From Candidatus Marinamargulisbacteria bacterium (GTDB lineage Bacteria > Margulisbacteria > Marinamargulisbacteria > UBA817), in contig JBMHDV010000004.1 of assembly GCA_049889215.1 (NCBI GenBank), positions 30,828 to 94,827 of the forward strand: a DNA stretch of 64,000 bases. The letters are read 5' to 3'. Both the position numbers and the translations under genes were made by a program. The notes below the pieces were generated by a model. It was not told the origin of the DNA and ran no database searches. It saw nothing but the letters and a program-made list of their open reading frames with translations. Below are positions 1 to 18,014 of the stretch, piece by piece. Within the stretch, counting starts at the first letter, position 1; the number at the start of each line of letters is the position of its first letter.

Positions 1-1673
1 TGTCCAGGCAATAATGTTGTATCAGTATCCTGGGCATCTATCGAAATCCAATCATTATGATATAGTTGCAAGCCATCGGATTCAGAAAATTGGATGGTTC
101 CGTTTTCTATAGCCCCAGATTGAACCGATTGTTGAATTGTAATTCCACCAGAAACCGTTAATTGGGCATTACTTTCTAACGTACCAATCGACACAGGACC
201 ATCAGAATAATTAATACCAGACCGAGTTGAACCAGCAAAAATTTGTTCCCATAAGTCTTGACCTAAAATTACATCTGTAAGATAACGACCATCACCAACA
301 AATTGTCTCGCTTTTACATTCCCTGACACAGACAAAAGATGATCTGCAGCAGGAGCGCGGTTAATCCCCATACCTCGCTTTGATTGCATCATCATGGTAT
401 AGTTTCTCGTCACGACCAGTGGTTGTGAACCATCAGAATAAAGAAATACTGAATTCGCGGTTACTTGAACATCGTTTCCAATAACAATATTTTTCTGACC
501 TGTAACATTATGATTTGTCCCCATAATCAAATTATAACTACCGTTCACAAAATGACGTCGTCCAAACATTGTGCCTAGGTAGCCGTCAACAGTATTATTT
601 TCGCCACCCAACACAACATTATATTCCCCGGCAACATCATGCGTTCGCCCACCAAAAACCACCGACCACTCTCCATCCACATAATGATCAAAGCCACCAG
701 CAACAACATTGTTCATATTATGAATCTCATGTGCCTGCCCACCAATAATAACAGAGGCATTGGATTGTAAATCAATACGATGATCTTCACCTCCAAGAGC
801 AGACGCATAATCAGACTTAACAACAATATCTTCTCCGAATCCCATTGAAAAGCGACCAATATCAACACTCTTAACTAAACTTGAAAAAACACCAGAACGA
901 AAGGCACTTCGATTTGGATCCCATAATAATACTGAACCTGAAGGTATATTATAACTAGGCAAAACATTCGAGCCATCCGATCTAAAAATAGCATTACCAT
1001 TCACATGAAGCCTTGCCAAAGGATTGGTTGTATGAATTCCAACATTACCTGTATTGCTTACAAAAACAACATCTTTAAAAGTACCATCTTCCGAATTAAG
1101 TGAATGACCATCATTAAAGCCTGGGCCTGTCAAATTTGTTAGTAAAGAACCATCTCCAACGAAATACTTTGCATAAATATCACCATGAACAGCTAATGAT
1201 GCGTTACTCGTAGCATTTTGAATAACCATACGGTTATTCAAGTAATCCAACTGGATTAAGTCATCATCATTAAATTGACGGGTTTGGTTTGACTGCTCTG
1301 CAAGAACAGAGAATGGCATATACTCAAACGGAATATCCACATAATCATTTAAAACAAGTACTCTAAGCTTTAAATCCTGATTAGATAAAATAGTTACCCA
1401 ATCCAAATTTGGATCTCGAATCATGGTAGACACTTCACCTTGATCAATTTGTAATGTTTGTGACTGAGACCAGATGGGTTGACCGTTAGCATCATTGATA
1501 ACCTCAAAACGAACATTATGAGTCCCCACCAATGGGTTCATTCGATCGCCAGCTGCATCTAACGGTTGAGATAAAGTAACATTAACTTGAAACTCATGAT
1601 TGAACGTTGACTGAGACTCCCCTATAACCATCATTGAAAATATTAAGAGAAAAACCATTAAGCGTATTATCAT
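1..1673 (-). CDS. Giant fibre-like secreted protein, paralogue D (N-terminal ~557 codons only; runs off left edge)
   Basis: Absent from the ORF track because it has no stop in the window. Hand translation from ATG 1673..1671 gives MIIRLMVFLLIFSMMVIGESQS (signal peptide) and stays open to position 1. It has the family landmarks: VGIHTTNPLARLHVNGN, YFVGDGSLLTNL, a 14-15-aa GG-x-x-N/H repeat block (ALGGEDHRIDLQSNASVIIGGQAHEI...) and GTIQFSESDGLQLYHNDW..DTDT. Its ATG overlaps the TGA of the upstream gene (ATGA). Confidence 0.8.
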   Translation of the reverse strand, partial: MIIRLMVFLLIFSMMVIGESQSTFNHEFQVNVTLSQPLDAAGDRMNPLVGTHNVRFEVINDANGQPIWSQSQTLQIDQGEVSTMIRDPNLDWVTILSNQDLKLRVLVLNDYVDIPFEYMPFSVLAEQSNQTRQFNDDDLIQLDYLNNRMVIQNATSNASLAVHGDIYAKYFVGDGSLLTNLTGPGFNDGHSLNSEDGTFKDVVFVSNTGNVGIHTTNPLARLHVNGNAIFRSDGSNVLPSYNIPSGSVLLWDPNRSAFRSGVFSSLVKSVDIGRFSMGFGEDIVVKSDYASALGGEDHRIDLQSNASVIIGGQAHEIHNMNNVVAGGFDHYVDGEWSVVFGGRTHDVAGEYNVVLGGENNTVDGYLGTMFGRRHFVNGSYNLIMGTNHNVTGQKNIVIGNDVQVTANSVFLYSDGSQPLVVTRNYTMMMQSKRGMGINRAPAADHLLSVSGNVKARQFVGDGRYLTDVILGQDLWEQIFAGSTRSGINYSDGPVSIGTLESNAQLTVSGGITIQQSVQSGAIENGTIQFSESDGLQLYHNDWISIDAQDTDTTLLPG

Positions 1674-4600
1674 TCTTTCGGCTCTCCTTCCAAATATATA
1701 AATGCCAATGTGTAATACTTGGGTTGATTGCTGGCTGTATGAATATGCTTAATATCATCATGAGTATGAGACGTTTCATTAAATGAATGCTTATGCCCAC
1801 TATTCTCTTTAAGCCTTGCATCATGATCATGGTTAAGTTTAATTTGATGTTTATGCAATCCCTGATTTTTTTTAGCAACCATTGCTTCTTTTGAGCGAAC
1901 AGAACGCCAATGCGTCTCATCTGGGTATCGGTATGATGTACCGAGACAAAGGCCCCACCAACTGTCGTATAACCAACAGTATTCCTCTGCGGGATTCGTA
2001 ATATATGTGGCCTCTCCAACTTTTTTAGAATTCGCTACATTGCCAACAGCATATGAGTCATTTGAATTGATTGTACTATTATTTGCGGCAATGGTTTTTT
2101 GAGCATGGCTATGTTTTGCAGAAGAATTTTCACCATGGCTGTGCTTGGATGTATGTTCATGTTTATAATTATCACCTGCTGAGGTATCTACTGCGATATT
2201 CATGTCGCCCACTTCAGTATTAACTTTTTCACTAGCTGTTTCACCCATAATAAATTGATCACGCATGTCACATTTGTCTGTTGTTGTTGCACTTGGTGAT
2301 CCAGCACAAAGCTTCCAGCCATCCGGTAAATCTGTCAACCAACCTGACCACATGATAATACTACCTTCAGGCATATGTGTTAGAACTTTATTTTTCCGAT
2401 ATACTTTTTGGCTAACATTGACAACTGATTTAACATCAACTTTAACATTATGCGAAGGCAATGCAGCCTCTGTGTCTCGAATATTGTAGGCAATATCAAC
2501 ATTACCATCCATATCAATAGCCAAATCAGCACCTGCATTTAACATTTGCTTTTCATCAGACATAATAAATGAATTTGGCACATACTGAGAATGACCAATA
2601 ACACCAATACTTCCTGCACCAAAAACCAAACGAGAATCTCCATCCCCTGTTCCCAAAGCTTCAATCTTTAGTTTTAAATCGTTTTGGTTAATATGAACTA
2701 ACGCAGAAGCAATGCTTGGCCCGATACTAAATTGACCCAAATTATTTAACTTCAACGATGTCCCATTTAACTTTGGGCGGAACTCAAAAAATGAATCATC
2801 TTTAAAATGTAAGATACGATCTGATACCCCACTTCCATACCCAATTGTAAGGCCCGAACTATTATCAAAAAATGATAACTCTGAATTTGATTGCGAACCT
2901 GATTTATTAAAATAAAGGCCCCCATAACCAACATACGATCCATTAATCAACAAAACATCTGTATCAGCTTGAGAGTCATATTCCTCTACAAACAAACGAG
3001 ACTGAATAACAAGATCATTATTTAAACCAGAAATACTACCCAAATAGGTTGATGAATGACCAACAACCATTGCCCCTCGAACATCAATCGTCGCCTTTGG
3101 CTGAGGTGTACCAATACCAAATCTTGACTCAACCATCACAGAATTTGGAGATGCAAGAATTTCGCCAGCTATATTCGCGCCAATCACCATATTACCGCCA
3201 ACATCAAGAAAATTTTTGGCTAAACCATTAACATTTAACGCAAGTTTATTTTCTTGCGATAAACTATGATAATGGTTGTTAACGATAAAATAGATATCAG
3301 ACACTCCTTGAGCAGATTTAAAATTCATATCACCATAGGCATTAGAGGAAATAAAAGCTCGATTATTTAATGATAATTCTGCCTGGGTTTTTGCATTAAT
3401 TCGTAACACACTATCAATGTATTCACTGGGATAAAATGCCAATTGATAATCCGAGTTCATTTGATTTAAACCAGCAGACTCAGACTCAAACTGCAATTGG
3501 TTAACTTGAAATAAAGTATTGTCATCCTGAGTGGTTTGATTAACTGTCACACGAATATCTTCATTAGCAATAACATTAAAGTCATCACCATAAGGATCCA
3601 AAAAGCCAGTAACATTCAACGATGGAATGATTGCCACATTCGTTGAAGCTATACCATCAACATCTAGGTCATACTGTGGTGATGCAGTGCCAATTCCAAC
3701 ATTTTCAGTAATCACATATTCATAGTTAACTAACTCATCATTAACATAAAACACATGCTTCCACGGAAACGGAATATTCTCCATTTCAGAAATATCACCG
3801 ATCATCTTGTTAGGCTGTCCATCCTCACCAACACCAATAACTCTTAAATTACCAGAAATAAGTAAATCACCATTAATTACCCCACCATTCATTAAATCAT
3901 TATAAAATGTTAACTGGTCCATATTCCCCATGGGGTCCCCCAACGAACTAATATTCGTAGCAGTGATCGAAATATTGTTCCCAACAAAGCCAAATAAATC
4001 GATCCCATTCGGCTTGGCCTCAACAATTGGATCATCATCATCAGCATCATACTGAGTTCCAGTTATTTTAGAAAAATGGTCCGAAAAGGATACCTTTGCA
4101 ACATTATCTTGCGTACTAACAAGTTCAAAACCCGTATCATAATCAAATGTTAAAATTTGGTTTTCATTCTCAACAACTTGCTTAAATTCACTGGTAGAAT
4201 CTTGAAAAATTTTGGTGTGAACTTGCTCCTCATTTATAAATAAGCCATCTGATAAATAAGCGCCAACATTAACATAAAGTGAATTTGTAGGTGCATTTGG
4301 AACGGGAATCGAACCAATTGCTAAACGCTGATCAACCAATTGCATTTTTTGCGCCCCATTAATATCAAACCTTATTCCAGAGTCCGACTTAACGCCCGCG
4401 AGTTGGAGTGCTGAATCTTTCACCTGTAAAACAGGTACAGATTGATTCGGATTATCCTTTCCTACCACAGGCAGAAACTTTAAGGGCGAATCAACAAAAG
4501 AAACCGTACCATTCACGTTTAATGTTTGGTCTGGGTTAGCTGGCGAAAAAATATTCATTTGTTGAGGCTTAAACTCAATTGCCGATTCATTTAATGCATT

Positions 4601-7369
4601 TAGTATTGCTAATGACTCTTGGTTGTTCGCTTCGGCCTCGATTGACCACTTTGGTTGATTTAGTCGTGAGAACACCATGCTAGACGTTAACTCACGACCA
4701 GCTGTATCCAGATAAATCACTGAATCATCCGTCAAATCTTTTACAACCAAAACAGTGGGGTCATTCGATCGTATTCCAAGACCTGCAGCTGTAAATGAAA
4801 CCGCTGGAGAAGATTGTTTGTCTGGATAAAATGTCATTGAATCATATTTAACAACAACACCAGTTTTTAATTGGCCAGCTTGTGAAAAAACACCTAAGGC
4901 TTGCCCATCATCAAGAATCATACTTCCTTTCGGATGATGCAGCATGGGCTGACCTAATTTTGAAGCATTATTTGCAGAAAGAAAGAACTCACCATCAGGT
5001 GTAATTTGTAATCGTGTTTGGTCATTCAACGAATTATAACTCTTTGGCAGTATTCTCAAATTAATCGGCGAACCAGTAGCTGCATGAAATGAAATCTTAC
5101 CATCGTCATCATGCTGAATAAATGGGGCTGTTTTTTGAGACCGGAAAGCAAACGAAGACGCTGTAGGAGTGTTATCAATCAACAACTCATCAACTTGCAC
5201 CCCAGTAGGTATAACAATATCAGAAGTCCCTTCCCCTCCAAAAAAACGAAGCGTTGAATCTGGCGCAATCGTTAACAATGGCGATCGGTTATGCGTTTCA
5301 AAAATAAAGCCACCACTACTTGACTGAAACATTAGCCCATAACCAGCACTTGAAGAATCAAATCGCTCAAATGTTTGTGGCGAAGAAATGTTAAATCCAA
5401 ACAAAAGATTAGATGGCATATTTTGATACCCTGAACCAAAAAAGGAAAGTCCACGGGTTTGACTTTGATTTAAAAATTGTACACGTAGTTGATCAGGGTC
5501 CTGAACTGTTAAACGACCTAAATAATGATTCGATCTACCCAAACTAATGGCACGATCATAGTATAAGTTTGGGGCAAATTCCTGCCAATTACTTTTGAGT
5601 GAATGAATCCAATCATTACCATCAAATACCAACATCTGCTTTGATTGCACATTTTCAGTAGCAAACGTTAAGCGCTGATCAATATTAACAAATTGGGGTG
5701 ACACATTGTAAAGTGTATTGGTGTCTTGAACCAATAGAGAATGTGTTGCAATCTCTCCGTAACCAACCAAATCGCCATACTCATAACTTAATGTTCCCGG
5801 AACCGAAGATCCATCCGAAGAAAGTATAAGACCTGATTTTAAATTCACTTTATTATCCCGTTTTAAAACAGTACCCAAACCAATCGAGTACCCAGAAAGT
5901 GTCATGACATCTTTATTCAATAGCCAATATTTATCGACAAATGACACATTCGATAATTGAGAACCTCGACCATAAAAATAATCCGCTTTTACTGAGCCAC
6001 TCACAACAAGTGCTTCAGAATGGTCCATTGTATTAATCGCTACCCCATTATCCAACATCCACATGATTTGATTCGCTTGCGTAGGTTGAGCCAATTGTGT
6101 TGAAGATTGATTAATAATAAATGACTTTGAAAAATTAACCATGGCACCATCACCAATCACGGTTACACGATCTGCGTTCACTTGATTATTATTTCCAAAA
6201 ACAAACACATCTTCACCATTAACCAAATTATTGTGCCCAATAATCGTTTGATGAGAACCGGACAGTTGATTTTTGTCAGATGCTAGCAAAACTGTATAAT
6301 TTGAACTTACTTCATTATTTTGACCATTAACATTGATGACATAGCTACGTAATACAGAATCATTTTGACCACCAAGTATAACCGAATAGTTACCATCCAT
6401 GACATGGGATTGCCCACCAAGAATTGCAGAGTATTGACCACTCAATGTATGATGCTTTCCACCAAAAACACTTGAATTACGCCCAGATATGACGATGTCT
6501 TCACCAAGAGCAACACTTGCTTGAGGAAACCCTGCCTCTTCTACACTTAAGTTTCGAGTAACATACCCAGCCTTCAATGCCCCCGATATTTGATCCCATG
6601 CAAATATTGATTGTTGCTTTGGTAGCGGAAATAATAAGCCACCTGAAGCTTCAGGTGATTTCAAAAATAACGTTCGTCCAATAACATCCAGTGGCATCTT
6701 TGGCGTGTTGTGCTGAACACCCACAAATGCTTGAGCATCAACAAAAACAATATCTCTACCATACTGACACGACAAATCAGAGTTATTTGGGGCACACGTT
6801 CTTGATAGGTTAGCCTCTAAGGAATGATCATCATTTAAACCGGACCCTTTGGCATTATAAATTCGCTTTCCATCTCCAGAAAACTTGGTGGCTTTTAATT
6901 CACCATTAATCATTAGATCTGCAGAAGTTGAACTAGCCCCCCCAATACGAATTTGACGATTTAAATAATCAACATAAAACAGTTCATCGTCCATAAGTTG
7001 TAATGTTTTATCCGTCAACTTAGATAAAACAGCCAATGATACTGACGAAATGGGTAAAAATATAATATCGTCTAATAACTCTAACTTAATACGTAAGTTC
7101 GGTTGATCAAAAACCAATACATCATTTAATTGATCAACATCCAATACAATATTTACGTTCACCAAGCCATCTGCAATATGCTGATCTTGGGTTGATCTAA
7201 AATATTCATTATTTCCACCATCGATAAATGACGAAGTTATTGGAATCGATTGTGTTGTTTGCAACGGTGCTTGGGTCGCATCATCAAATACAATCACCTG
7301 ATAGGTAATCGTTTTAGAAAAACCAAAAAGTGACATAAAAGCCAATAGAAACAGAATACGCTTAATCAT
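1670..7369 (-). CDS. Giant fibre-like secreted protein, paralogue B (1899 aa) with a tail-collar-like, HxH-rich C-terminal tip
   Basis: Long uninterrupted ORF with signal peptide MIKRILFLLAFMSLFGFS. Recurrent tail-fibre-type motifs are present (VGIGTASPQYDLDVDG; FSGDGKRI; YFYGRGSQLSNV). A YadA-head/Hep_Hag-like 14-15-aa repeat block lies at aa ~285-411. The C-terminus starts with a collar-like motif (PEGSIIMWSG..LPDGWKLCAG) and ends ..PKYYTLAFIY. ATGA overlaps occur at both ends. Confidence 0.9.
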   Translation of the reverse strand: MIKRILFLLAFMSLFGFSKTITYQVIVFDDATQAPLQTTQSIPITSSFIDGGNNEYFRSTQDQHIADGLVNVNIVLDVDQLNDVLVFDQPNLRIKLELLDDIIFLPISSVSLAVLSKLTDKTLQLMDDELFYVDYLNRQIRIGGASSTSADLMINGELKATKFSGDGKRIYNAKGSGLNDDHSLEANLSRTCAPNNSDLSCQYGRDIVFVDAQAFVGVQHNTPKMPLDVIGRTLFLKSPEASGGLLFPLPKQQSIFAWDQISGALKAGYVTRNLSVEEAGFPQASVALGEDIVISGRNSSVFGGKHHTLSGQYSAILGGQSHVMDGNYSVILGGQNDSVLRSYVINVNGQNNEVSSNYTVLLASDKNQLSGSHQTIIGHNNLVNGEDVFVFGNNNQVNADRVTVIGDGAMVNFSKSFIINQSSTQLAQPTQANQIMWMLDNGVAINTMDHSEALVVSGSVKADYFYGRGSQLSNVSFVDKYWLLNKDVMTLSGYSIGLGTVLKRDNKVNLKSGLILSSDGSSVPGTLSYEYGDLVGYGEIATHSLLVQDTNTLYNVSPQFVNIDQRLTFATENVQSKQMLVFDGNDWIHSLKSNWQEFAPNLYYDRAISLGRSNHYLGRLTVQDPDQLRVQFLNQSQTRGLSFFGSGYQNMPSNLLFGFNISSPQTFERFDSSSAGYGLMFQSSSGGFIFETHNRSPLLTIAPDSTLRFFGGEGTSDIVIPTGVQVDELLIDNTPTASSFAFRSQKTAPFIQHDDDGKISFHAATGSPINLRILPKSYNSLNDQTRLQITPDGEFFLSANNASKLGQPMLHHPKGSMILDDGQALGVFSQAGQLKTGVVVKYDSMTFYPDKQSSPAVSFTAAGLGIRSNDPTVLVVKDLTDDSVIYLDTAGRELTSSMVFSRLNQPKWSIEAEANNQESLAILNALNESAIEFKPQQMNIFSPANPDQTLNVNGTVSFVDSPLKFLPVVGKDNPNQSVPVLQVKDSALQLAGVKSDSGIRFDINGAQKMQLVDQRLAIGSIPVPNAPTNSLYVNVGAYLSDGLFINEEQVHTKIFQDSTSEFKQVVENENQILTFDYDTGFELVSTQDNVAKVSFSDHFSKITGTQYDADDDDPIVEAKPNGIDLFGFVGNNISITATNISSLGDPMGNMDQLTFYNDLMNGGVINGDLLISGNLRVIGVGEDGQPNKMIGDISEMENIPFPWKHVFYVNDELVNYEYVITENVGIGTASPQYDLDVDGIASTNVAIIPSLNVTGFLDPYGDDFNVIANEDIRVTVNQTTQDDNTLFQVNQLQFESESAGLNQMNSDYQLAFYPSEYIDSVLRINAKTQAELSLNNRAFISSNAYGDMNFKSAQGVSDIYFIVNNHYHSLSQENKLALNVNGLAKNFLDVGGNMVIGANIAGEILASPNSVMVESRFGIGTPQPKATIDVRGAMVVGHSSTYLGSISGLNNDLVIQSRLFVEEYDSQADTDVLLINGSYVGYGGLYFNKSGSQSNSELSFFDNSSGLTIGYGSGVSDRILHFKDDSFFEFRPKLNGTSLKLNNLGQFSIGPSIASALVHINQNDLKLKIEALGTGDGDSRLVFGAGSIGVIGHSQYVPNSFIMSDEKQMLNAGADLAIDMDGNVDIAYNIRDTEAALPSHNVKVDVKSVVNVSQKVYRKNKVLTHMPEGSIIMWSGWLTDLPDGWKLCAGSPSATTTDKCDMRDQFIMGETASEKVNTEVGDMNIAVDTSAGDNYKHEHTSKHSHGENSSAKHSHAQKTIAANNSTINSNDSYAVGNVANSKKVGEATYITNPAEEYCWLYDSWWGLCLGTSYRYPDETHWRSVRSKEAMVAKKNQGLHKHQIKLNHDHDARLKENSGHKHSFNETSHTHDDIKHIHTASNQPKYYTLAFIYLEGEPKE
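6137..6517 (-). repeat. Coding repeat block: ~9 units of a 14-15-aa beta-roll-like repeat (S-x-I/V-L/F-G-G-x-x-N/H...) in paralogue B
   Basis: SSVFGGKHHTLSGQY / SAILGGQSHVMDGNY / SVILGGQNDSVLRSY / ..VFVFGNNNQVNADR / VTVIGDGAMV. The periodicity is read directly from the translation and resembles trimeric-autotransporter head repeats. Confidence 0.7.
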
Positions 7370-10300
7370 GATTCTGCCACCTTTATAATATACCTTACGA
7401 CCCGCGATTTTGGTCGATTATCAAAATCATGACCGTGCTCTTCTGCTGAGGTATGCGAGTGATTCGTTGTCTCAGAGCTTCCATGTAAGCTTCCATGCCC
7501 CCCACCTTCAAACGTAATGTTATCATGACTATGATTATCATTAAAACTATGATTATGTGTTATACCTGGCTTTAAAACTGTATATTCTTCAGTATCGCCA
7601 ACTTTTGATGATGCATACGCAGTGGAGCTTGCGGTGGTTTTAGAACTAACACCACCCGATGCAAAGTCAATGGTATGCTTATGCTTACCGTCATCAACGG
7701 TGTGAGAATGACCTACTGATGTATGCGAGTGGTACGTATCACTCATTCTCTGATCTTTAACTCCACCACTAACAAAGTTGTTCTGGCCATCTTTAACGTT
7801 ATAGCTTGCATTAACAGACTTCACATAGCGCCCATCCATATTGGGGCATCCATTCGATCCATTACATTCAGCCCACCCTGCAGGAATAGTACCTGAACTA
7901 TTCCAAAGGATAATGACACCAGTGGGCACTGATTGAAATTCATGAAACCCAGATGAATTTAATCGATCTGAAATAAGGTAGCTATCTGCATGCAGGTTCC
8001 CTTTAACATTCACATCAAAGTTATCGATAGGGTCTGTATTTATCCCCACCTTATTATTTTTTATAATCAATTCAGCATTTGTAAATGAAGATGAGCCTAC
8101 TTTTATTGATAACCCTTTTGAGGCTGTTCCAATAATTGCTTGATCACTACCATGTTTTAAATGAACTAACGCACTGGTCCCAGATTTAATTTCAAGCTGA
8201 ACATCACGATCTGAATCCATCACATGGAATGGTACCTGTGGCTGCCCGCCAACACCCAACCAAGCATCTGGTGATAAAATCAAATTCGGCTGCCAAGACC
8301 CGTCACGAAAGGCATTCCACGAAAATCCATTATAACTATTAAACTTGAACCCAATATCCGCTTCTAATTGTTCGATAACATCATGTTTGTTTGATGGGTT
8401 ATTCCGCTCTATTAAAAGTGAATCATCCATACCATTGCGAAGGGTTAATCGACCATTTTTAATTGATAAGTCTCCATTGGCTATAACACGTTCGTCTTGA
8501 ATCACATTGGATGTTCCAACAAACAACCTATAGCTACCATCACCATTAATAAAAACCCCTTTAGGAATTTCTTCTGAATAACGTTCACCAACAATCACAG
8601 ACCCACTCACTTCCAAATCATAAATTGGTAAAGTTGTCGCATCTAAACCAACGCCAACATTTCGGTTAACCGCTAAACTGTTGGAATGAACCTTTTCTTT
8701 AAAACCAATTGAAACATTTCCACTGACATCCAACGTATTTTTAATTTTGGAAGAAAAAATACCCAACTGACCTTGATCATTAAATTTTAAAGCCTGTTTA
8801 TTTTGATTCACATAAAGTAGAAGGTCTGAAGAAGATTGCAGTTGTAAATTTGGATTAACAAATGAAACTGGTGTTCGTGTCCCTGTATCATCATACAAAA
8901 CCCGAAATATATTTAATGATTGATCTCGACCAAGTGTGATCGATGACCCTGTTGCACCATCAAATAGAACGGATGTTTTATCAAAAGGGTTGGATTGACC
9001 AATGTCAACCAAATACGATGATGATTGTGCACCTAACAAAAACTGAGAGTCATTTTTTATTTCCAATAACCGCTCGAAAGAAGGATCGGTAAGACTATCC
9101 CCATGTCGTCCAAATAATACAGAACTTTTTCTGGAGTTAAATCCAAGTCCATGTGAAGATCTCAAATAAATATTTTCAGATCCAACTAAATTGGATACGG
9201 TAATGCCTTCCGATGCAATGGCCTCATTTATAGAACTCGTACCAACAACCTCGAGCAAAGTTGTTGGAAAATTCGTATTAATACCGATTCTACCTGATTT
9301 GTAATAAATTTCACCTTCATCATAATAGTCAGTTGGGGCATCATCTGGATCTGGAATATCGACACTATTCCGTGTAACTTGCTCCCAACGAAAAGGAATA
9401 CCTCGAAGCCCAGATGCATCCCCTTTAATTTTTTCAGTTACCACAAAATCACCCTTTATCGTTAGGTCACTACTGATTTCCCCTCCAGAGATCAAATCAT
9501 TAATCAGTTCAATTTGATCAAATGTTAATGCCCCATCCACCGACCGATCAACGATATTATTAGCACTAACAGTAATTCCCTTTCCAACAAGCCGTAATGG
9601 CGTATTACCAGTTGCCGTAAACACGGTACCATCAGGCAATTTAATCCGATTATAATAGGGTTTCGCAGCAATCTTTAACGGTGATTCTGCGGTATTTTGA
9701 CCGCTAAACTCTAACCCTGAGGCATCATTTATTTTAATTCGTTTCACCATACGAAGCGAATTATCACCAACATCATTTTTTACATCTAACGGAAATATTT
9801 TATCATCCAACGAATTATAGATATCACCATCAACAATCATTGATCCCCCAACATCAAAACCAATCGCTTGATTTAGAATCTGTGAGATTGTTTGACGCTT
9901 ATTTACTGCCACACCATTTTTACCAACTTCCAAAGCAACATTTTCTTCAGCCGTCATGACATCAATAGTATTTGATGAATCAATCACCAATTCATTAGCA
10001 TCCATAACCATTGCTGGATAAGATGTTTGACCATCAACCTCTTTAAAATATAAACCAGACTGATTCAATAAAGTAACCGGAGCTTTTATAGATAAATTAA
10101 CCGACGGTGAATCATCAAGAAAACCAATCATATTATTTTGTTGAATCTTTAGAACCGATGCATTGTTTCTTGTTAAATCCAAATCATCATCCACAGAGAG
10201 TGTCATTGCAAACGTTTCTCCATCTGAGTCAAACGAATTATCATTATTTTCATCAACCAAAAATTCAAGGCCATTAACTGAATTTTTCGCTGCATCTAAT

Positions 10301-13089
10301 TGGAAAATTCGCTCTCTACTAGCACCCGGGTCTCTTACAAATAAATCATATTGCGCATTTGCTGTTACATTAATACCTACATTTGAATCTTTTGAAATTG
10401 ATACATTTGGGGTTACAAAATTACCTGATGTATAAATTTTAATTGGGGTTGGTTTCGTTGAATTGAATACAAGTCCCGAACGCTGCTGACCCAAATTATA
10501 AAAACCAAGCCCATAACCATCTGAAACATGAACAGACCCGTTTTTGATATCAATATTTGAACGAAGCCACCTTGAACTTAACCCAAACATGGTCTCACCA
10601 GTATAGCTACGCTGCACCCGAGCAAATAGTTGATCTTGTTGTTTAAAAAGAATATCTTTGCCCCAAGGGCCGGACTGAATTGTAAGGTTTCCATTATTCA
10701 ATTGTTCGATCATTACCGCTCGATCCTCCGCCTGGTCACCATAACAAATCCGGGAAGAATAATCATAAATACTACATGACCGAAAAAATTCATTCTTCAA
10801 ATAGATACCAGCTTGTGATTCATCCCCAAAGGTCATCAAGGATTTAGATCCTAACCGTCCACCAACATAGAATGGCAACTCTGGGGATACCCCATCTCCC
10901 ATAACAAGAATATTTTGGGAGCTCATTTTTAAAACGTCTACTTTATTTCCCATCGCATCATCCAATGAAATCAAAAACTGATTATTAACAACTTCCATAC
11001 CACCACCGACAGATTGAGATTGAAGAAATGAGCCGTTTTGATAAACCCCTTGAAAATGAATACCAGGCGGATCAACTGAAATCGATAGTTTCTTTTCATC
11101 GGCCGTGGCAAGATCAGATAAATACGCCGCTGTTTGGTGATTATCATCAACAAATACTGACAATGTATTATCGGGCAACGAATAACCGCTCAAGGTTTCA
11201 GGAACATTAATGAGCATATTATTTGAAGTGATGACTAATCGCTTTGACAACGCCACATTCATTAATCGGGAAGAGTGAGCCTCTTCATCAAATTGATCCA
11301 CAAAACTTGGCACCCACGCATCCCCATTCCATTTAAGGACCTGACCAATAATTACATTTTCTGATGCCATATGAAATGTTTTTGTTTGATCATCAAGTGC
11401 CAATGCACCCGTGGCATTATACGTTGTATTAGTATCCACCATTTGAAGTGTTTGCCACTGACCGTCTTTATATACTTCAAACGTGTCGTCAAAATAACGA
11501 ATCGTCCCTGAACTTGCAACAGCTTCACCACTTAAATGAATACTCCCGCTAACATTTAAAGATTCAATTAAGGAAGAGCGGTCAATTCCCATCTTTCCAT
11601 CAAATACCAAATGATTGGGTAAACTAGGAATTAACATTTGCCAGACACTCTCAGGGCTTTTTATATTTTTTATTAAAGATGCATCACCAATAAAGCCATC
11701 CGCAACAACCGACCCGCCAATCGCAAATTGGTTTCCACTTGGAACCGCATTTAAACCAACCCCATTATCTGCTTGAATTTGGATACTTCCTGAAACAGCT
11801 GATTGTGAATATTGATCTGTTAATCCAAAAACAACTGCATTAGCGTGCGATTCATCAACACGTACTTTTTGACCAAAAGCTATCGAGCCAGGGGCATTCA
11901 ATTCATGATTATTTCCACCCAACACCATGGCTCCATCACCGCGAACTACATTTTGAAACCCAGATACTATCGAGCCTTGACCATATGATTTATTATCAAA
12001 ACCGCCCAAAACCAGTGCATCTTGACTCGCTTGGTTTTGCATTCCACCAAGGATTACTGAATTTGAGGTTATGATTAAATTTTTCTGACCACCAGAAATA
12101 ATCGAATCCGGGCCCAAGATTTCATTTTCTGAACCGCCACCAATAATGGATGAATCTGCAACAACTCGATTATAGTAACCACCTGTAATAATAGAATATT
12201 TGCCTGACGCAACCCCAGAAAACCCCATCGAAATTGAATGATCACCACTAACATCATCATCCCAATAATTGGACGCCGTATAACCTATTCGAAGAATATC
12301 ACGATCACCATGCCACATCCATCGAGAGCCAGCTCCTGAGAATATATTAGATGTCGCCATTGAATTAGCTTGTAATAATAACGAACCATACGTTGTTAAA
12401 TGTGCATGTGGCGTACCAATTGTTGTTGGAGCGCCAATGAGGACGCGGCCAGTTGCATTAACCGTAACAATATTAAATTGCCCATTTTCAGATGATAACG
12501 AGTTATAATTATCTTCACCTTGATATCTTAAGTTAAATAACCTAGACCCATCACCAATAAATACACCTGTTGCATTTGCAGTTCCAACAATATCAAGCAT
12601 GGATTCCGGAGTTGCTTTTCCAACACCAAAACGCTGATTTGAATAATCAATCGAAAATTTATTAGAATCAATAAATCGGTTCGTACGCAACGCATTTGAT
12701 GACTTTACAACGTAGGGTATTGAGGCCAAAGGTAGTTCAGTAACCAATTCTTCATCAAATTGAATACGAATGTATATCGTATTACCTAGCTCAAAAAATG
12801 GAATTAATTCATCAGAAACATCCAAATTTGTTTGAAAATAATTATTTGTAACATCGATCTCTTTTTGAATTGATACAGTTGGAACCATTTGTGATTTTTC
12901 ATACAAAATAATCTCAGAAATAAACCGATTATTGATTTGTCGAAATGGGGATGGGGTCAAGATGCCATCCAATGAAATTTGAGTTGGCGCAGTCGCTTCA
13001 GTTGAATATGTAACCGCAGCCGACCCATCCAATGAGAATATGGTGCAATTAATAAAAATAAGTAGAAAAGCTGATTTTATAAGGTTCAT
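7366..13089 (-). CDS. Giant fibre-like secreted protein, paralogue A (1907 aa) with a tail-collar-like, HxH-rich C-terminal tip
   Basis: Signal peptide MNLIKSAFLLIFINCTIFSLDGSAA. Motifs include RFGVGKATPESMLDIVGTANATGVFIGDGSRLFNL, RIGINTNFPTTLLEVVG and KVGINTDPIDNFDVNVKG. A repeat block lies at aa 283-411, followed by GTIRYFDDTFEVYKDGQWQTLQMVDTNT. The C-terminal collar-like motif is PTGVIILWNSSGTIPAGWAECNG..CPNMDGRYV and the protein ends ..RVVRYIIKV. Its stop overlaps the start of paralogue B (ATGA). Confidence 0.9.
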   Translation of the reverse strand: MNLIKSAFLLIFINCTIFSLDGSAAVTYSTEATAPTQISLDGILTPSPFRQINNRFISEIILYEKSQMVPTVSIQKEIDVTNNYFQTNLDVSDELIPFFELGNTIYIRIQFDEELVTELPLASIPYVVKSSNALRTNRFIDSNKFSIDYSNQRFGVGKATPESMLDIVGTANATGVFIGDGSRLFNLRYQGEDNYNSLSSENGQFNIVTVNATGRVLIGAPTTIGTPHAHLTTYGSLLLQANSMATSNIFSGAGSRWMWHGDRDILRIGYTASNYWDDDVSGDHSISMGFSGVASGKYSIITGGYYNRVVADSSIIGGGSENEILGPDSIISGGQKNLIITSNSVILGGMQNQASQDALVLGGFDNKSYGQGSIVSGFQNVVRGDGAMVLGGNNHELNAPGSIAFGQKVRVDESHANAVVFGLTDQYSQSAVSGSIQIQADNGVGLNAVPSGNQFAIGGSVVADGFIGDASLIKNIKSPESVWQMLIPSLPNHLVFDGKMGIDRSSLIESLNVSGSIHLSGEAVASSGTIRYFDDTFEVYKDGQWQTLQMVDTNTTYNATGALALDDQTKTFHMASENVIIGQVLKWNGDAWVPSFVDQFDEEAHSSRLMNVALSKRLVITSNNMLINVPETLSGYSLPDNTLSVFVDDNHQTAAYLSDLATADEKKLSISVDPPGIHFQGVYQNGSFLQSQSVGGGMEVVNNQFLISLDDAMGNKVDVLKMSSQNILVMGDGVSPELPFYVGGRLGSKSLMTFGDESQAGIYLKNEFFRSCSIYDYSSRICYGDQAEDRAVMIEQLNNGNLTIQSGPWGKDILFKQQDQLFARVQRSYTGETMFGLSSRWLRSNIDIKNGSVHVSDGYGLGFYNLGQQRSGLVFNSTKPTPIKIYTSGNFVTPNVSISKDSNVGINVTANAQYDLFVRDPGASRERIFQLDAAKNSVNGLEFLVDENNDNSFDSDGETFAMTLSVDDDLDLTRNNASVLKIQQNNMIGFLDDSPSVNLSIKAPVTLLNQSGLYFKEVDGQTSYPAMVMDANELVIDSSNTIDVMTAEENVALEVGKNGVAVNKRQTISQILNQAIGFDVGGSMIVDGDIYNSLDDKIFPLDVKNDVGDNSLRMVKRIKINDASGLEFSGQNTAESPLKIAAKPYYNRIKLPDGTVFTATGNTPLRLVGKGITVSANNIVDRSVDGALTFDQIELINDLISGGEISSDLTIKGDFVVTEKIKGDASGLRGIPFRWEQVTRNSVDIPDPDDAPTDYYDEGEIYYKSGRIGINTNFPTTLLEVVGTSSINEAIASEGITVSNLVGSENIYLRSSHGLGFNSRKSSVLFGRHGDSLTDPSFERLLEIKNDSQFLLGAQSSSYLVDIGQSNPFDKTSVLFDGATGSSITLGRDQSLNIFRVLYDDTGTRTPVSFVNPNLQLQSSSDLLLYVNQNKQALKFNDQGQLGIFSSKIKNTLDVSGNVSIGFKEKVHSNSLAVNRNVGVGLDATTLPIYDLEVSGSVIVGERYSEEIPKGVFINGDGSYRLFVGTSNVIQDERVIANGDLSIKNGRLTLRNGMDDSLLIERNNPSNKHDVIEQLEADIGFKFNSYNGFSWNAFRDGSWQPNLILSPDAWLGVGGQPQVPFHVMDSDRDVQLEIKSGTSALVHLKHGSDQAIIGTASKGLSIKVGSSSFTNAELIIKNNKVGINTDPIDNFDVNVKGNLHADSYLISDRLNSSGFHEFQSVPTGVIILWNSSGTIPAGWAECNGSNGCPNMDGRYVKSVNASYNVKDGQNNFVSGGVKDQRMSDTYHSHTSVGHSHTVDDGKHKHTIDFASGGVSSKTTASSTAYASSKVGDTEEYTVLKPGITHNHSFNDNHSHDNITFEGGGHGSLHGSSETTNHSHTSAEEHGHDFDNRPKSRVVRYIIKVAES
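11857..12243 (-). repeat. Coding repeat block: ~9 units of the same 14-15-aa repeat in paralogue A
   Basis: YSIITGGYYNRVVADS / SIIGGGSENEILGPD / SIISGGQKNLIITSN / SVILGGMQNQASQDA / LVLGGFDNKSYGQG / SIVSGFQNVVRGDG / AMVLGGNNHELNAPG / SIAFGQKVRV. Confidence 0.7.
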
Positions 13090-13167
13090 GAATTCACCAT
13101 TATGTTATTCCCGTTTTTTCACATCTTTAAACATAATTTAAGTTCATTTTTGACGATTGATCTGGCT

Positions 13168-13202
13168 AAAAAAAAAAGGGGTATTTTACTAAATAAAACC
13201 AC
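13168..13202 (-). terminator. Possible weak intrinsic terminator between the 409-aa gene and the giant-gene operon
   Basis: The minus strand reads GTGGTTTTATTTAGTAAAATACCCC followed by T10. The stem is imperfect and AU-rich, but the U-tract is long. Confidence 0.3.
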
Positions 13203-13293
13203 TTTTAATTAATAGCCGAACATCGTCTTTAACGATTTCTTCGAAAGTTATAAAATCAAAGAATAATTTAACTTAAAACATTATCTGAGGAAA

Positions 13294-14523: not shown

Positions 14524-15188
14524 CTAAAGTTTCCACCAACCATTAATTGAACTAAAAAATCGTTGTAACTCATCAACAACTTGGGAATCAATGGTGATAT
14601 TGATGTTGTAAATGACCAAGATGCAGTATTAATTGTTGGAAATGTATATTTAGAAGACTCTAAAAATGATTCAATCATCGCCGAGTTAAATGAAAAAGAA
14701 TTGAAACAACAGGGGCATGGCCCATAAAAATCTACCAATAATGTTACATCCGTACTTATTTCAAATTCATGGTCACAATGGTCACATTGACCTTTAAAAA
14801 TATAGGATGTCATCGGGAAAATAGAAACATAAATACTCTCAATACGAAATGGTTTAACCACCTTTTCATGTGCCTTAAACGCACCGTAAAATTCCTTAAC
14901 CACCGCCAATGAACTTGAGTGTGGAAAATGATAGCCCAACTCACAAATTAAAAACTGGCCCATCGAATTTAATTTTGTTGGCTTCATTTTTTGGATGTAA
15001 GTTAAAAAAAAGGTCAAACTCTCATTATATTGATAGCGAGAAAATTGGATAAACGCAAAGTCAAGTAACATTGGAATACGTTTTTCATTTGAAAGCTTAA
15101 AGAAATAATCAGTAGCGGCACTATAATTTCCAGCCAATCGATAAGCCTCAACCGGATTCGTTTTTCCCATATCAATTAATCTTAGCAC
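14520..15188 (-). CDS. Hypothetical protein with a helical N-terminal half and a Cys/His zinc-ribbon-like motif
   Basis: 222-aa ORF with a GTG start (ATG alternative at MGKTNP). It carries CDHCDH-x19-CPCC (GQCDHCDHEFEISTDVTLLVDFYGPCPCCFNSF). No recognisable family. Confidence 0.5.
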   Translation of the reverse strand: MLRLIDMGKTNPVEAYRLAGNYSAATDYFFKLSNEKRIPMLLDFAFIQFSRYQYNESLTFFLTYIQKMKPTKLNSMGQFLICELGYHFPHSSSLAVVKEFYGAFKAHEKVVKPFRIESIYVSIFPMTSYIFKGQCDHCDHEFEISTDVTLLVDFYGPCPCCFNSFSFNSAMIESFLESSKYTFPTINTASWSFTTSISPLIPKLLMSYNDFLVQLMVGGNFR

Positions 15189-15263
15189 AGTTCTTTATTA
15201 GAATGTGACACTTACCTACACAATACGGCTTGCCATAATTCGGTCATAAATAAACAAACAATT

Positions 15264-18014
15264 CTAGAATTCACACGTAGCACCAGCGGGTGAAATAACT
15301 GCTCGAGAATTATTTCCTGTACAAAAACATAATGCGATCACATTCGTTCCATTTAACATTTCATTTTTTGTATATAAAGATCCTGCACTATCTGCATCAC
15401 ATGGGTCAGAGTTACTAGGGTTTAATTTTAAAACATCATTAAGTTCTACTGTTGCATTAAAAGTTACAGCGTTGTTTTGAATAGCATTTAACTGTACATC
15501 CGACAGTTCAGACCCATTCCCAAAAAACTTTGTCGCATTCACGTTACCATTAACATCCAGCTTAAATGCGGTTGCAGGATCTTTGCCAATACCGACATTT
15601 CCATTCGCCCGAATGGATAGTAATTGAGATGAAGAATCATCTTTTTCTCGCACAAAATCAATGATTTTAGTATCACTAATAGCAACGTTATGAAATGTTA
15701 AATTAAAATGATTCGATGATGTCATTGTTGTATATCGGTTACTAGCTGTAGTGTCTTCCAAACGTAATTGTGGAATATTAGAGTTAGATTCACCAATATG
15801 TAACGATGCCTGTATATTTGAAGTAACAGCCCCAATTCCAACCAATCCATCATTATTTAAAACCAATTGCCTCGCGGGCGTACCATCTGAAGGTGTCATA
15901 TACCAAACTGGCACATCCGTTAATTGACTACCATCACCAACAAATGCATTGGCAGTAATGGTTGCTGACGCCTCAATCTCGGCCACATTAAGCTTTCCAG
16001 TAATTTGAGCACTTCCCTCGACGTCCAATTTATCATCAGGGTTCTCCACCCCTACACCAACATTTGAATGAATATAAAATTCACCATTATCATTAGCCGT
16101 CATCTCAGCTACCGTGTTCGCTTTGTACTTAAATAACATTGAAGAGTTTGAATTATTTTGAATTAGCGCTTTATTTTGATCATTAAAGCCAATTAAAAGC
16201 GCGGATGGATCCACTGCATTGGATTGAATTTTAATAATCGCGGGATGATCAACGGTCTGTTTGATAAACAAGGATGAGTCTTTGGGATCCGCATCATTAT
16301 TTCCACCAATACCAACCCGTTTATTTTCAACATATACTGATTGATTGGTACTATCACCTTGCCATAAACTTGAAATATTAGTGATAAATCGGCCGTCCCC
16401 AACCAAATAATTAAACTCAAGCTGCCCAGAATCAGTAATTTTAGCAGCCACAATATCGCCTGCGGACCATATTGTATGATCCTCAACTTGTGGTGCATTT
16501 TCAGGTGGAAATTTTCGATTTTCTTCATCGTCTTTAATAAATCTAGGCACATTCATATTGACGTCATTAAGACCAACCATCACCCCATTTTTAGCACGAA
16601 TTAAAAACTGATTGGCTTTATTATTTCTAAATTCATCTGTAGACGACGTATCGGCAAAAATAAACACCCCATCTGTCGAGGAATTTGAATTACCAACCCG
16701 TGAGTTCTGACCTAATACATAACTATATTGGCCATAAATTTCATGACCATTTCCGCCAAGAATTGCTGAGTAATTTGAACCGGCATGAATAACATTATTT
16801 TTACCACCTAAAATTGATGCATGATCTGATGTTGCTAATATTTGATTATTTTGACCAGCACCAATAAAGACATAATCTGACCGTGTTTCATTATTATTTC
16901 CACCGGCAATCACCGTTCCACCATTCACAGCAGTATTCACATTGTTACTTTTTCCTGATAAAACACCAGACTCTTTTACAGCGACTGTATTTTCTAAACC
17001 GCCTGCAACCACAGAATACGGTCGTGACACAGTATTATCACCACCTGCGGCACTACCATAATCGCCTGAAACTTCATTCCCTTTTCCAAAAGCAACAGAA
17101 TAGTTACCACTATTTTCAGAGCTCCATTTACTACTACTCGATTCACCAGCACGAAAAAAACCTTTTTGAGAATTCCAAATCAGTTGTTTTTCACTATTGT
17201 AGGTCCCTGTTGACGCCAATGATGTACCAACTAATTCAATATTACTATTCCCTTTAATTGCAGCATGATCCACTTTTAAATTACCAGATACGTGCAATGG
17301 CTCTTGTATATTTGCAGTAACATCAATATTAACGCCAACATTACCAACAGTGGTTACAAATACAACATCACGCGTCGGAGCATTATTGTCTGTTCGAGAT
17401 GGCGCATCATAAGGAGATAACGAATAGTCATCCAAATTAACCAATTTCAAATAATCCAATTGGTGTACATTATAGCCATCTGGACTATGAAGTTCACCCG
17501 TTGCATTTACAGAAGTTATATTTGCTGATCCCACCACCTGAAAAGGAACAGTTAAGTTTTGAGTAATGCCAATACCTACGCGGTGATTAACGGTATTTAC
17601 TTTCATCCATGATTCCGTATATTCCAATTCTCTAGCATAATCTGAATACTTAGCAACAACAGCACCTGGGACACTAATTAAGGGAACCGTAACGGTATCA
17701 TCAATTTCCTGGAAACTTAAATTTAAAAATACATCGTCACCTTTAAATAAATGATAATTTAATGGCCGCTTTTGCCCTAAAACCTCAGACACCTTACCTT
17801 GGGTGATATAAATTGTATGAGACTCATTCCAAATGGCCTCATTTAATGGTTGATCTCGTGATGTCAATAACGAAAAAGTAACAGTGTAATTTCCTTCCAT
17901 TACCCCAGTTTCAGTATTGCCCAAAAGGAATTGCACATTCACATTTCCAGTGACAGCATGCACGTGAATACTACCTAATATAAAGATACTTAGTAAAATA
18001 CGAATTAGTTTCAT
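15264..18014 (-). CDS. Fibre-like secreted protein, paralogue C (916 aa) with a Cys-rich C-terminal tip instead of a collar
   Basis: Signal peptide MKLIRILLSIFILGSIHVHA. Motifs include RVGIGITQNLTVPFQVVG, NVGVGVENPDDKLDVEGSAQITG, AFVGDGSQLTDV and FFGNGSELSDV. The repeat block reads SVAFGKGNEVSGDYGSAAGGDNTV..ILGGKNNVIHAGSNYSAILGGNGHEIY. The protein ends ..DPCDADSAGSLYTKNEMLNGTNVIALCFCTGNNSRAVISPAGATCEF. Confidence 0.88.
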   Translation of the reverse strand: MKLIRILLSIFILGSIHVHAVTGNVNVQFLLGNTETGVMEGNYTVTFSLLTSRDQPLNEAIWNESHTIYITQGKVSEVLGQKRPLNYHLFKGDDVFLNLSFQEIDDTVTVPLISVPGAVVAKYSDYARELEYTESWMKVNTVNHRVGIGITQNLTVPFQVVGSANITSVNATGELHSPDGYNVHQLDYLKLVNLDDYSLSPYDAPSRTDNNAPTRDVVFVTTVGNVGVNIDVTANIQEPLHVSGNLKVDHAAIKGNSNIELVGTSLASTGTYNSEKQLIWNSQKGFFRAGESSSSKWSSENSGNYSVAFGKGNEVSGDYGSAAGGDNTVSRPYSVVAGGLENTVAVKESGVLSGKSNNVNTAVNGGTVIAGGNNNETRSDYVFIGAGQNNQILATSDHASILGGKNNVIHAGSNYSAILGGNGHEIYGQYSYVLGQNSRVGNSNSSTDGVFIFADTSSTDEFRNNKANQFLIRAKNGVMVGLNDVNMNVPRFIKDDEENRKFPPENAPQVEDHTIWSAGDIVAAKITDSGQLEFNYLVGDGRFITNISSLWQGDSTNQSVYVENKRVGIGGNNDADPKDSSLFIKQTVDHPAIIKIQSNAVDPSALLIGFNDQNKALIQNNSNSSMLFKYKANTVAEMTANDNGEFYIHSNVGVGVENPDDKLDVEGSAQITGKLNVAEIEASATITANAFVGDGSQLTDVPVWYMTPSDGTPARQLVLNNDGLVGIGAVTSNIQASLHIGESNSNIPQLRLEDTTASNRYTTMTSSNHFNLTFHNVAISDTKIIDFVREKDDSSSQLLSIRANGNVGIGKDPATAFKLDVNGNVNATKFFGNGSELSDVQLNAIQNNAVTFNATVELNDVLKLNPSNSDPCDADSAGSLYTKNEMLNGTNVIALCFCTGNNSRAVISPAGATCEF

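Follow-up and report, generated by a model that had tools for sequence, protein, structure and literature searches.

Tips that combine a collar with a needle of HxH motifs are host-recognition devices of phages and phage-derived particles. In the 64,000-nucleotide stretch of Candidatus Marinamargulisbacteria DNA analyzed here (the window), what appears to be the same device ends apparently Sec-exported proteins of a bacterial lineage without a cultured member.

Sequence Anatomy of the Tip Domain

Paralogue B (1670..7369, minus strand) is a complete ORF of 1,899 aa that starts with MIKRILFLLAFMSLFGFS, a Sec-signal-like N-terminus recognized by eye only. Window positions 1670–2371 on the minus strand encode its last 233 aa. 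On translation, the C-terminus opens with PEGSIIMWSGWLTDLPDGWKLCAG, continues through HEH, HSH, and HSH and then HKH, HDH, HKH, HTH, and HIH, and closes with QPKYYTLAFIYLEGEPKE before the stop codon. All eight HxH motifs counted in the preliminary description are present, as are the collar-type motif and the collar-type ending between which it had placed them.

The tip domain (1673..2377, minus strand; residues 1665–1899) was delimited by alignment, profile searches, and hhalign and consists of a collar, an HxH needle, a head insert, a second HxH needle, and a closing strand. The N-terminal collar motif, PEGSIIMWSGWLTDLPDGWKLCAG...CDMRDQFIMGE (2237..2371, minus strand; residues 1667–1711), is identified by PHROG families, a PDB profile search, hhalign, and AF2, and by Pfam at a sub-threshold score. 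It is followed by the first, ascending HxH block with HEH, HSH, and HSH (2105..2161, minus strand; residues 1737–1755), defined by alignment and spacing; the spacing of 6 and 10 residues within this block is kept in the orthologues of B. The head insert (1856..2104, minus strand) spans ~83 Trp/Tyr-rich residues, occupies the same place as the head of T4 gp37, and is a candidate distal binding surface. In an 11-sequence alignment of the tip family, it is the most variable block of the tip, which is what a distal binding head would predict, and it contains a Cys pair (YCW...GLC) that most B-type sequences share. The second, descending block with HKH, HDH, HKH, HTH, and HIH (1739..1855, minus strand; residues 1839–1877) leads into the closing strand of the collar, ...NQPKYYTLAFIYLEGEPKE (1673..1738, minus strand), which aligns with the C-termini of 9qgo, 6ov6, and gp37 (NIAFNYIVRLA in gp37). 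An ORF of 141 aa with a TTG start (1594..2019), which lies inside B and C in another frame of the same strand, was treated as spurious.

Homology to Phage Fiber Tips

The collar-type label of the preliminary description is borne out by the PHROG tail collar fiber families, of which phrog_1800, phrog_5795, and phrog_8469 match the B tip with E-values of 5e-9, 4.1e-8, and 5.8e-7, respectively, but not at the Pfam cut-off, since PF07484 (Phage Tail Collar Domain) reaches 15.2 bits (E = 0.022) against a gathering threshold of 24 bits. PF07484 matches 10 of the 11 tip-family members, all below threshold (best E = 7e-4; 16.2 bits for paralogue A), and the tip of paralogue A matches phrog_1800 with E = 5.8e-15 over profile positions 389–545 of 545.

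Against the PDB, the tip-family profile matched the Photorhabdus PVC fiber (9qgo, 6.8e-10), the fiber of Pseudomonas phage Pa223 (9nxk, 6e-9), and tip C24 of a Bizionia prophage (6ov6, 9e-8), all of which are solved trimeric fibers whose entries were deposited with three identical chains. The comparison with the T4 tips that had been suggested as a check was positive for gp37, where hhalign of alignment A2 against residues 811–1026 gave a probability of 86.6% and E = 4.5e-6 over 49 columns of the collar, and weak for gp12 (0.11). None of the sequence searches matched the gp37 needle; the collar alone was matched.

Among 50,697 phage records, the sole matches to the tip were marine phage tail-collar and fiber proteins. 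Among the relatives retrieved, 163 are below 700 aa in length, and 35 of these carry at least eight HxH motifs; the fiber of cyanophage Sf-FR1 has about 15. Thus, eight HxH motifs are not exceptional. The family of ~1,850-aa proteins was recovered by a full HMMER scan, whereas word-indexed searches gave just 3, then 28 proteins.

Structure Models of the Tip and the β-Roll

An AF2 monomer model of the B tip, computed from the 11-sequence alignment, has a mean pLDDT of 48.5 and is confident for the collar strands only (71–81 in the collar motif and 70–72 in the closing strand), with values below 50 across both HxH blocks and the insert. A Foldseek search with this model returned nothing significant, the best hit being 6ov6 at E = 0.4. 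The low-confidence monomer model is not counted as evidence here.

Closer to the N-terminus, B contains a left-handed β-roll like the head of a trimeric autotransporter (6050..6502, minus strand; residues ~290–440), which is, to our knowledge, a domain type found in trimers only. It was recognized by phmmer (UspA1, 3pr7, E = 3.1e-5, and also 3ntn and Ata, 3wp8), by a sub-threshold match to Pfam LbR_Ice_bind (1e-4), by AF2 with a pLDDT of ~90, and by Foldseek, in which the best hit was 3ntn with a probability of 1.0 but E = 0.02.

Proposed Architecture and Metal Binding

The homologies described above support the B tip as a collar and HxH needle of the phage-fiber type, and from them we infer its trimeric state and its metal. 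The last ~235 residues of B would form a receptor-binding tip built like that of T4 gp37, in which the chain leaves the shaft via the collar, runs outward with three HxH motifs, forms a Trp/Cys-rich head, and returns with five HxH motifs, after which the last strand closes the collar. Three such chains would intertwine, and at each HxH level six imidazoles would surround one octahedral metal ion centered on the threefold axis; a trimer would hold up to eight such ions, most likely Fe2+ and possibly Zn2+. With these ions as staples, the needle would be thin and rigid and would display the variable head.

The metals named for such motifs in the preliminary description were iron in gp37 and zinc in gp12. 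Passages of PMC11705849 and PMC6116203, which cite Bartual 2010, describe seven Fe ions held by the HxH motifs of T4 gp37, and passages of the same two papers document octahedral Fe at HxH in gp37, P2 gpV, phi92, and R-pyocin fibers. This agrees with the octahedral iron named for gp37; for the zinc of gp12, a passage of PMC6116203 names the preparation method as a possible source.

Beyond the tip, the signal-peptide-like N-terminus suggests that B is Sec-exported, and the protein may be a trimeric fiber displayed by a marine Marinamargulisbacteria cell, with an N-terminal β-sandwich, the β-roll, and a long shaft as its parts besides the phage-type tip. With A and C, it would make up a set of three co-transcribed paralogues whose heads differ, and it would probably serve as an adhesin toward another cell or a surface. 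As a whole, a metal-stapled trimeric tip on a Sec-exported trimeric cell fiber is the best explanation of this locus, and we consider it likely; the searches identified no outer-membrane secretion route or anchor for B, which counts against it.

Gene Arrangement and the Paralogous Trio

B lies between two paralogues on the same strand. Paralogue A (7366..13089, minus strand; 1,907 aa) overlaps the start of B with its stop codon (ATGA), and its tip (7369–7932) contains seven HxH motifs and one degenerate HxxxH. Paralogue C (1..1673, minus strand), whose start overlaps the stop codon of B in the same manner (ATGA), is represented in the window by its first 557 codons and continues beyond it; in the 94%-identical contig L002, C ends with a collar and an HxH tip. 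Paralogue D (15264..18014, minus strand; 916 aa) shares the N-terminal plan and the β-roll of the others, and its C-terminus is Cys-rich and devoid of HxH. All four paralogues and their orthologues start with signal-peptide-like N-termini. A promoter and terminator scan of 12900–15400 revealed nothing exceeding shuffle expectation.

This arrangement permits another reading, in which A, B, and C contribute one chain each to a single heterotrimeric fiber, with metal sites assembled from three different chains and an asymmetric head. The window and the Margulisiibacteriota sequences L004, L005, and L006 all keep the order A-B-C, with starts that overlap or lie adjacent; the three proteins are similar in length (about 1,830–1,930 aa) and share the plan of three HxH, an insert, and four to five HxH; and the paralogues are old, being about 20% identical to one another compared with 33–44% between orthologues, all of which favor such a fiber. 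Nevertheless, the registers of the three needles do not agree, since the HxH motifs of B are spaced by 6 and 10 residues in the first block and by 8, 12, 9, and 7 in the second, whereas A follows 7, 9 and 8, 24, 8 and C follows 7, 9 and 8, 24, 7. Moreover, the head inserts vary in length by a factor of about two, the HxH counts within one genome (L006) are unequal (9, 7, and 9), and paralogue-specific indels of 8–35 residues are distributed along the shaft. The solved relatives, with their three identical chains, likewise speak for homotrimers; no heterotrimeric HxH needle is known to us, and there is none among the solved relatives matched here. A heterotrimer is therefore unlikely. Equally doubtful is its extension, in which domesticated phage fiber tips and autotransporter-like heads would have been combined in the trio into a heterotrimeric, metal-stapled ABC "tail fiber" of the cell for attaching to host or partner cells.

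Constraint on the Histidines

Histidine makes up 17 of the 233 residues of the B tip (7.3%) compared with 1.7% of the remaining 1,666 residues of B, and 16 of the 17 sit in HxH motifs. Shuffling the tip with its composition kept yielded 1.16 ± 1.0 HxH, at most seven in 100,000 shuffles and never eight; the background His frequency would predict about 0.07. In the 11-sequence alignment, most of the 16 HxH His columns are invariant and the others nearly so, and the middle residue is free to vary, among relatives of about 30–40% identity.

These features bear on the proposal that the HxH stretch is a surface-exposed His-rich region that binds or buffers metal (Ni, Zn, Cu, or Fe), responds to pH, or builds histidine ladders free of metal. 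His-rich segments elsewhere bind metal without a structural role, and the tip monomer model shows no confident fold at the HxH motifs, as such a region would. However, His tracts of the storage type tend to be irregular and to diverge in sequence, whereas the histidines here are strictly paired at i and i+2 with fixed spacing, persist where the residues between them vary, and lie between the N- and C-terminal halves of a collar, just as in gp37. We consider a surface His-rich region quite improbable, and the stapled needle accounts better for this pattern.

Genomic Setting

The genes near the fibers encode DnaK, Mfd, ArgG/H, YebC, and PanE; the housekeeping proteins of the window cluster at 90% identity or more with those of Candidatus Marinamargulisbacteria SCGC AG-343-K17, and in L006 ORFs with housekeeping-type motifs come after the A-B-C trio. 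The preliminary description had called B a cellular secreted protein of 1899 aa: its length stands, its gene neighborhood is cellular, and its secretion is suggested by a signal-peptide-like N-terminus seen on inspection only. That A to C are instead fibers of a prophage, a tailocin, or an extracellular contractile injection system (eCIS), as the best solved-structure match to an eCIS (PVC) fiber and the restriction of the family matches to phage tail proteins might suggest, was rejected as very improbable indeed, because the signal-peptide-like N-termini fit poorly with the cytoplasmic assembly of such fibers, the scanned cluster genes include no capsid, sheath, tube, or baseplate family and no phage family besides the fiber tips, the other scanned window genes being housekeeping, the trio is syntenic in several Margulisiibacteriota genomes of differing GC content (33–50%), and IMG/VR holds no full-length B-type tip.

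Implications

Since collar tips with many HxH motifs are common in marine phages, the tip domain itself is not new. What is new is its setting, on three paralogues of ~1,900 aa that have signal-peptide-like N-termini and are joined by ATGA overlaps. As judged from sequence, a Marinamargulisbacteria bacterium probably carries phage-style adhesive fibers on its own surface; a literature search found no report of fibers or adhesins in Margulisbacteria. Marinamargulisbacteria have small genomes (drafts of 0.5–2.0 Mb) and are known from sequence only. One relative is a symbiont that lives inside cells of the animal Trichoplax (PMC6784892). The four fiber genes occupy about 20 kb, roughly 1% of such a genome, and this investment, together with the conserved order of three long genes, points to a central role in contact with cells or particles. 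The 235-residue tip offers an expressible target for seeking the binding partner. Should these tips hold iron in the manner of gp37, fibers of cells would join phage tails as a pool of protein-bound iron in seawater, probably a small one.

Comparison with Known Systems

The closest annotated phage matches of the B tip are marine phage collar fibers, such as gp196 of Synechococcus phage Sf-FR1 and gp023 of Prochlorococcus phage P-SSM2, which similarly combine a collar with many HxH motifs and end in PPYYALCYIMK. Unlike B, they are 500–600 aa long with 7–15 HxH, lack the W/C-rich insert of the B type, and match the B tip at residues ~10–100 only. Iron binding by HxH is proposed for "Ferrojan/Trojan horse" phage fibers in a passage of PMC11705849.

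In C24 (6OV6), the PVC fiber 9QGO, the Pa223 fiber 9NXK, and T4 gp12 (1OCY, 1H6W), both collar halves match B, including the C-terminal ...H.H...PYYtLAfI strand; the E-values of 1e-7 to 1e-10 for the first three refer to the collar parts only, gp12 being marginal. Their HxH motifs are far fewer than those of B; the aligned parts show one or two, close to the C-terminus. C24, from a Bizionia argentinensis prophage, is said in a passage of PMC11821841 to resemble the tip of the T4 long fiber.

The T4 gp37 tip (811–1026, PDB 2XGF; sequence from NC_000866) is laid out in the same order as that of B: the collar motif P.G..i.W...vP.G comes first, then three HxH motifs and a head, and a further run of HxH motifs leads to a hydrophobic strand that ends the protein. 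The descending run counts five HxH in B and four in gp37, the closing strand reads YYTLAFIYL in B and IAFNYIVRLA in gp37, and the head of B, with ~83 aa, a Cys pair, and many Trp, contrasts with about 30 aa in gp37. Whereas gp37-type tips are virion components with dedicated fiber chaperones, B is cellular and starts with a signal-peptide-like sequence, and its neighbors include no adjoining gp38/gp57A-type chaperone gene.

Trimeric autotransporter adhesins of the UspA1, Ata, and YadA type resemble B in their left-handed β-roll head and their form as long exported fibers. However, B does not belong to them: it lacks the C-terminal 12-stranded β-barrel that serves as translocator and anchor, the YadA_anchor family has no match in B in Pfam or NCBIfam, and the collar and HxH tip takes its place at the C-terminus. 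The polarity of B is thus reversed relative to these adhesins, with the presumed distal tip at the C-terminal end.

The histidine-rich tip of B

Fibre protein B, the middle member of the tandem A-B-C paralogues, is encoded on the minus strand by an ORF of 1,899 aa (1670..7369), the C-terminus of which corresponds to window 1670-2371. The translation of this segment reads PEGSIIMWSGWLTDLPDGWKLCAG, HEH, HSH, HSH, a long insert, HKH, HDH, HKH, HTH, HIH, QPKYYTLAFIYLEGEPKE, and a stop, which is identical to the preliminary description of a domain carrying eight HxH motifs. The last 233 residues contain 17 histidines (7.3% vs 1.7% in the remainder of B), 16 of which are located within HxH motifs. 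About 0.07 HxH motifs are expected in the segment at the background histidine frequency, and shuffling the segment yields 1.16 +/- 1.0, with eight reached in 0/100,000 trials; the enrichment is confirmed to lie far beyond chance. A 141-aa ORF in another frame (1594-2019, minus strand, TTG start) is nested wholly within the region where B ends and C begins and is almost certainly not a gene.

In an alignment of 11 tip sequences, whose members are 30-38% identical to B, most of the 16 motif histidines occupy invariant columns and the others are nearly invariant, and the middle residue is unconstrained (E, S, K, D, T, I, N, G, R, Q, A, L, or Y). Motif spacing is constant in B-type sequences, i.e., those with 3+5 HxH motifs and a Trp/Cys-rich insert: 6 and 10 in block 1, and 8, 11-12, 9, and 7 in block 2. 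Conservation is highest in the collar motif and in the last strand, (Q/E)PxYYxLAFIYL. The head insert between the blocks (about 55-85 aa in B-type sequences) is the most variable; it is Trp/Tyr-rich and in most of these sequences carries a Cys pair, which in B is the YCW...GLC of the Trp-rich head (1856-2104). The B collar holds a second pair, LC.G...KC (2237-2371), and both pairs are probably disulfides if the protein is exported.

Domain organization of B

Residues ~290-440 of B show similarity to the head domains of two trimeric autotransporters, UspA1 (3pr7, 3.1e-5; 3ntn) and Ata (3wp8). The AF2 model of residues 19-480 contains a confident N-terminal beta-sandwich (pLDDT ~80) and a beta-roll (pLDDT ~90), for which UspA1 3ntn is the top structural match (prob 1.0, E=0.02, too weak to rely on alone). 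To our knowledge, this type of beta-roll is known only from trimers, and an additional trimerization role for it is plausible. The shaft displays repeated F-x-G-D-G-S-x-L-x-N motifs, and no autotransporter barrel is present in B. B is therefore a mosaic of N-terminal sandwich, beta-roll, long shaft, and phage-type tip. In the monomer AF2 model of the tip, confidence across the HxH blocks and insert is too low to be reliable (pLDDT <50), and the Foldseek search with this model was uninformative.

Distribution of the fibre trio

An exhaustive HMMER search of 1.8 billion representative proteins, using a profile built from two sequences, returned 10 matches below 1e-30, 40 below 1e-10, and 2,199 below 1e-3. 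Among the best were proteins of 1,520-1,870 aa with the domain at the extreme C-terminus; the remaining matches were mostly short proteins aligning to the collar part of the profile. Within a species-representative genome set, the full-length domain occurs only in four Margulisiibacteriota, Marinamargulisbacteria, or UBP8 assemblies. The A-B-C order is repeated in the Margulisiibacteriota assemblies L004, L005, and L006 (GC 40 to 50%), where the complete proteins measure about 1,830-1,930 aa with 7-9 HxH motifs in the last 260 residues; a further assembly, L003 (GC 33%), shows only B and C. ORFs downstream of the L006 trio carry housekeeping-type motifs, as read by eye. Because identity is about 20% among the paralogues A, B, and C and 33-44% between orthologues, the trio is older than these lineages.

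In the TARA contig L001, the B orthologue has an in-frame TAA (1958-1960) in place of the conserved Ser of PQPSHNV ~30 codons before the tip, which is therefore annotated as a separate 240-aa gene (P0002); the stop codon reflects a sequencing error or a nonsense allele. In L002, a 94%-identical contig of 116 kb, the A, B, and C orthologues are split by frameshifts into many short gene calls, so that only fragments of these proteins occur in the word-indexed database; the frameshifts are consistent with long-read assembly, as is the suffix "pilon" of the record name.

Gene neighborhood and probable cellular origin

Four paralogous fibre genes lie in a row on the minus strand (1-18014): D (15264..18014, 916 aa), A (7366..13089, 1,907 aa), B, and C, which begins at 1673 and extends beyond the window. 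At the A/B and B/C junctions, stop and start overlap as ATGA. The shorter D shares the N-terminal plan of A, B, and C, and its Cys-rich end lacks HxH; the A tip has seven HxH motifs and one degenerate HxxxH, and C in L002 ends in a collar with HxH motifs. By inspection, the N-termini of all four resemble Sec signal peptides. Between D and A (13294-15188, minus strand) are two ORFs of 222 aa and 409 aa without signal peptides, the former carrying CDHCDH...CPCC motifs; neither gave a Pfam, NCBIfam, or meaningful PHROG match, and they could encode fibre-specific modification or assembly factors. At 19008-24565 (minus strand), a 756-aa SLH-domain protein with a glucodextranase-B-like domain adjoins a 1,095-aa protein whose C-terminus has weak, sub-threshold similarity to a T9SS type A sorting domain (TIGR04183, E=7.5e-4).

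Outside the fibre cluster, the scanned genes encode DnaK, Mfd, ArgG, ArgH, PepF, leucyl aminopeptidase, YebC, PanE, the above SLH-domain protein, and a PPi-phosphofructokinase homologue, and the scanned remainder of the window is ordinary chromosome; ArgH, YebC, and DnaK share clusters of at least 90% identity with proteins named Candidatus Marinamargulisbacteria bacterium SCGC AG-343-K17 or Candidatus Margulisiibacteriota. No phage structural families were detected among the cluster genes scanned. From the signal-peptide-like N-termini, conserved synteny, and housekeeping neighbors, all of which speak against an origin in a virion or tailocin, we argue that A-D would be proteins of the cell.

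Proposed assembly of the tip

In the fibres or spikes of gp37, P2 gpV, phi92, and R-pyocin, three chains contribute HxH histidines to the octahedral coordination of Fe, and the Zn in gp12 may stem from protein preparation (PMC6116203; PMC11705849). By homology and conservation, the B histidines are likewise predicted to lie on a threefold axis and bind metal. Three B chains would trimerize and their C-terminal ends intertwine into a needle, in which up to eight HxH levels could each hold one ion through six imidazoles, generating a thin, stiff stalk; the last strand would close the collar, and at the distal end the variable aromatic head may bind the target. A heterotrimer of A, B, and C is improbable, since HxH spacing and counts (9, 7, and 9 in L006) and head sizes are unequal and each paralogue has its own indels. 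A, B, and C would present three different heads.

Comparison with known fibres

The family profile matches solved fibre proteins, namely the Photorhabdus PVC fibre 9qgo (6.8e-10), the Pseudomonas phage Pa223 fibre 9nxk (6e-9), and the Bizionia prophage tip protein C24 (6ov6, 9e-8), and weakly T4 gp12 (0.11). The entries 9qgo, 9nxk, and 6ov6 each contain three identical chains, and 9qgo and 6ov6 align with the B family at both ends, through the N-terminal motif and the C-terminal ...H.H...PYYxLAfI strand. The tail-collar-like assignment is borne out by these profiles and by hhalign; the Pfam Collar model reached only a below-threshold match. All available indirect evidence supports the earlier interpretation of the domain as a candidate metal-stapled trimeric needle.

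Among 50,697 phage records, tblastn matched 18, nearly all from marine phages (Synechococcus, Prochlorococcus, Vibrio, and others) and mostly bearing tail collar or tail fibre annotations. Sf-FR1 gp196 combines a collar with about 15 HxH motifs and the ending PPYYALCYIMKT; in P-SSM2 gp023, a collagen-like shaft is joined by a collar, several HxH motifs, and an ending of the same kind. The retrieved relatives below 700 aa in length form a query-biased set of 163, of which 84 carry five or more HxH motifs and 35 eight or more; a many-HxH collar domain is not very unusual. The full-length B-type tip was not found in IMG/VR, where the best match covers residues 2-92.

The tip of T4 gp37 (residues 811-1026, NC_000866) comprises a collar (YPIGAPIPWPSDSVPAGF...PDMRGQTIKG), HSH, HTH, HSH, a ~30-aa head, HSH, HSH, HTH, HGH, and ...NIAFNYIVRLA; the order of parts is identical to that of B, with 3+4 HxH motifs in gp37 and 3+5 in B. 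Collar homology was detected by hhalign (86.6% probability, E=4.5e-6), and the MAFFT alignment is collinear, with identity so low that only shared architecture is demonstrated. The B tip adds a divergent new member to a known fibre-tip class; what is new is a phage-type tip on a conserved trio of giant, putatively exported fibres in Marinamargulisbacteria, which merits experimental follow-up.
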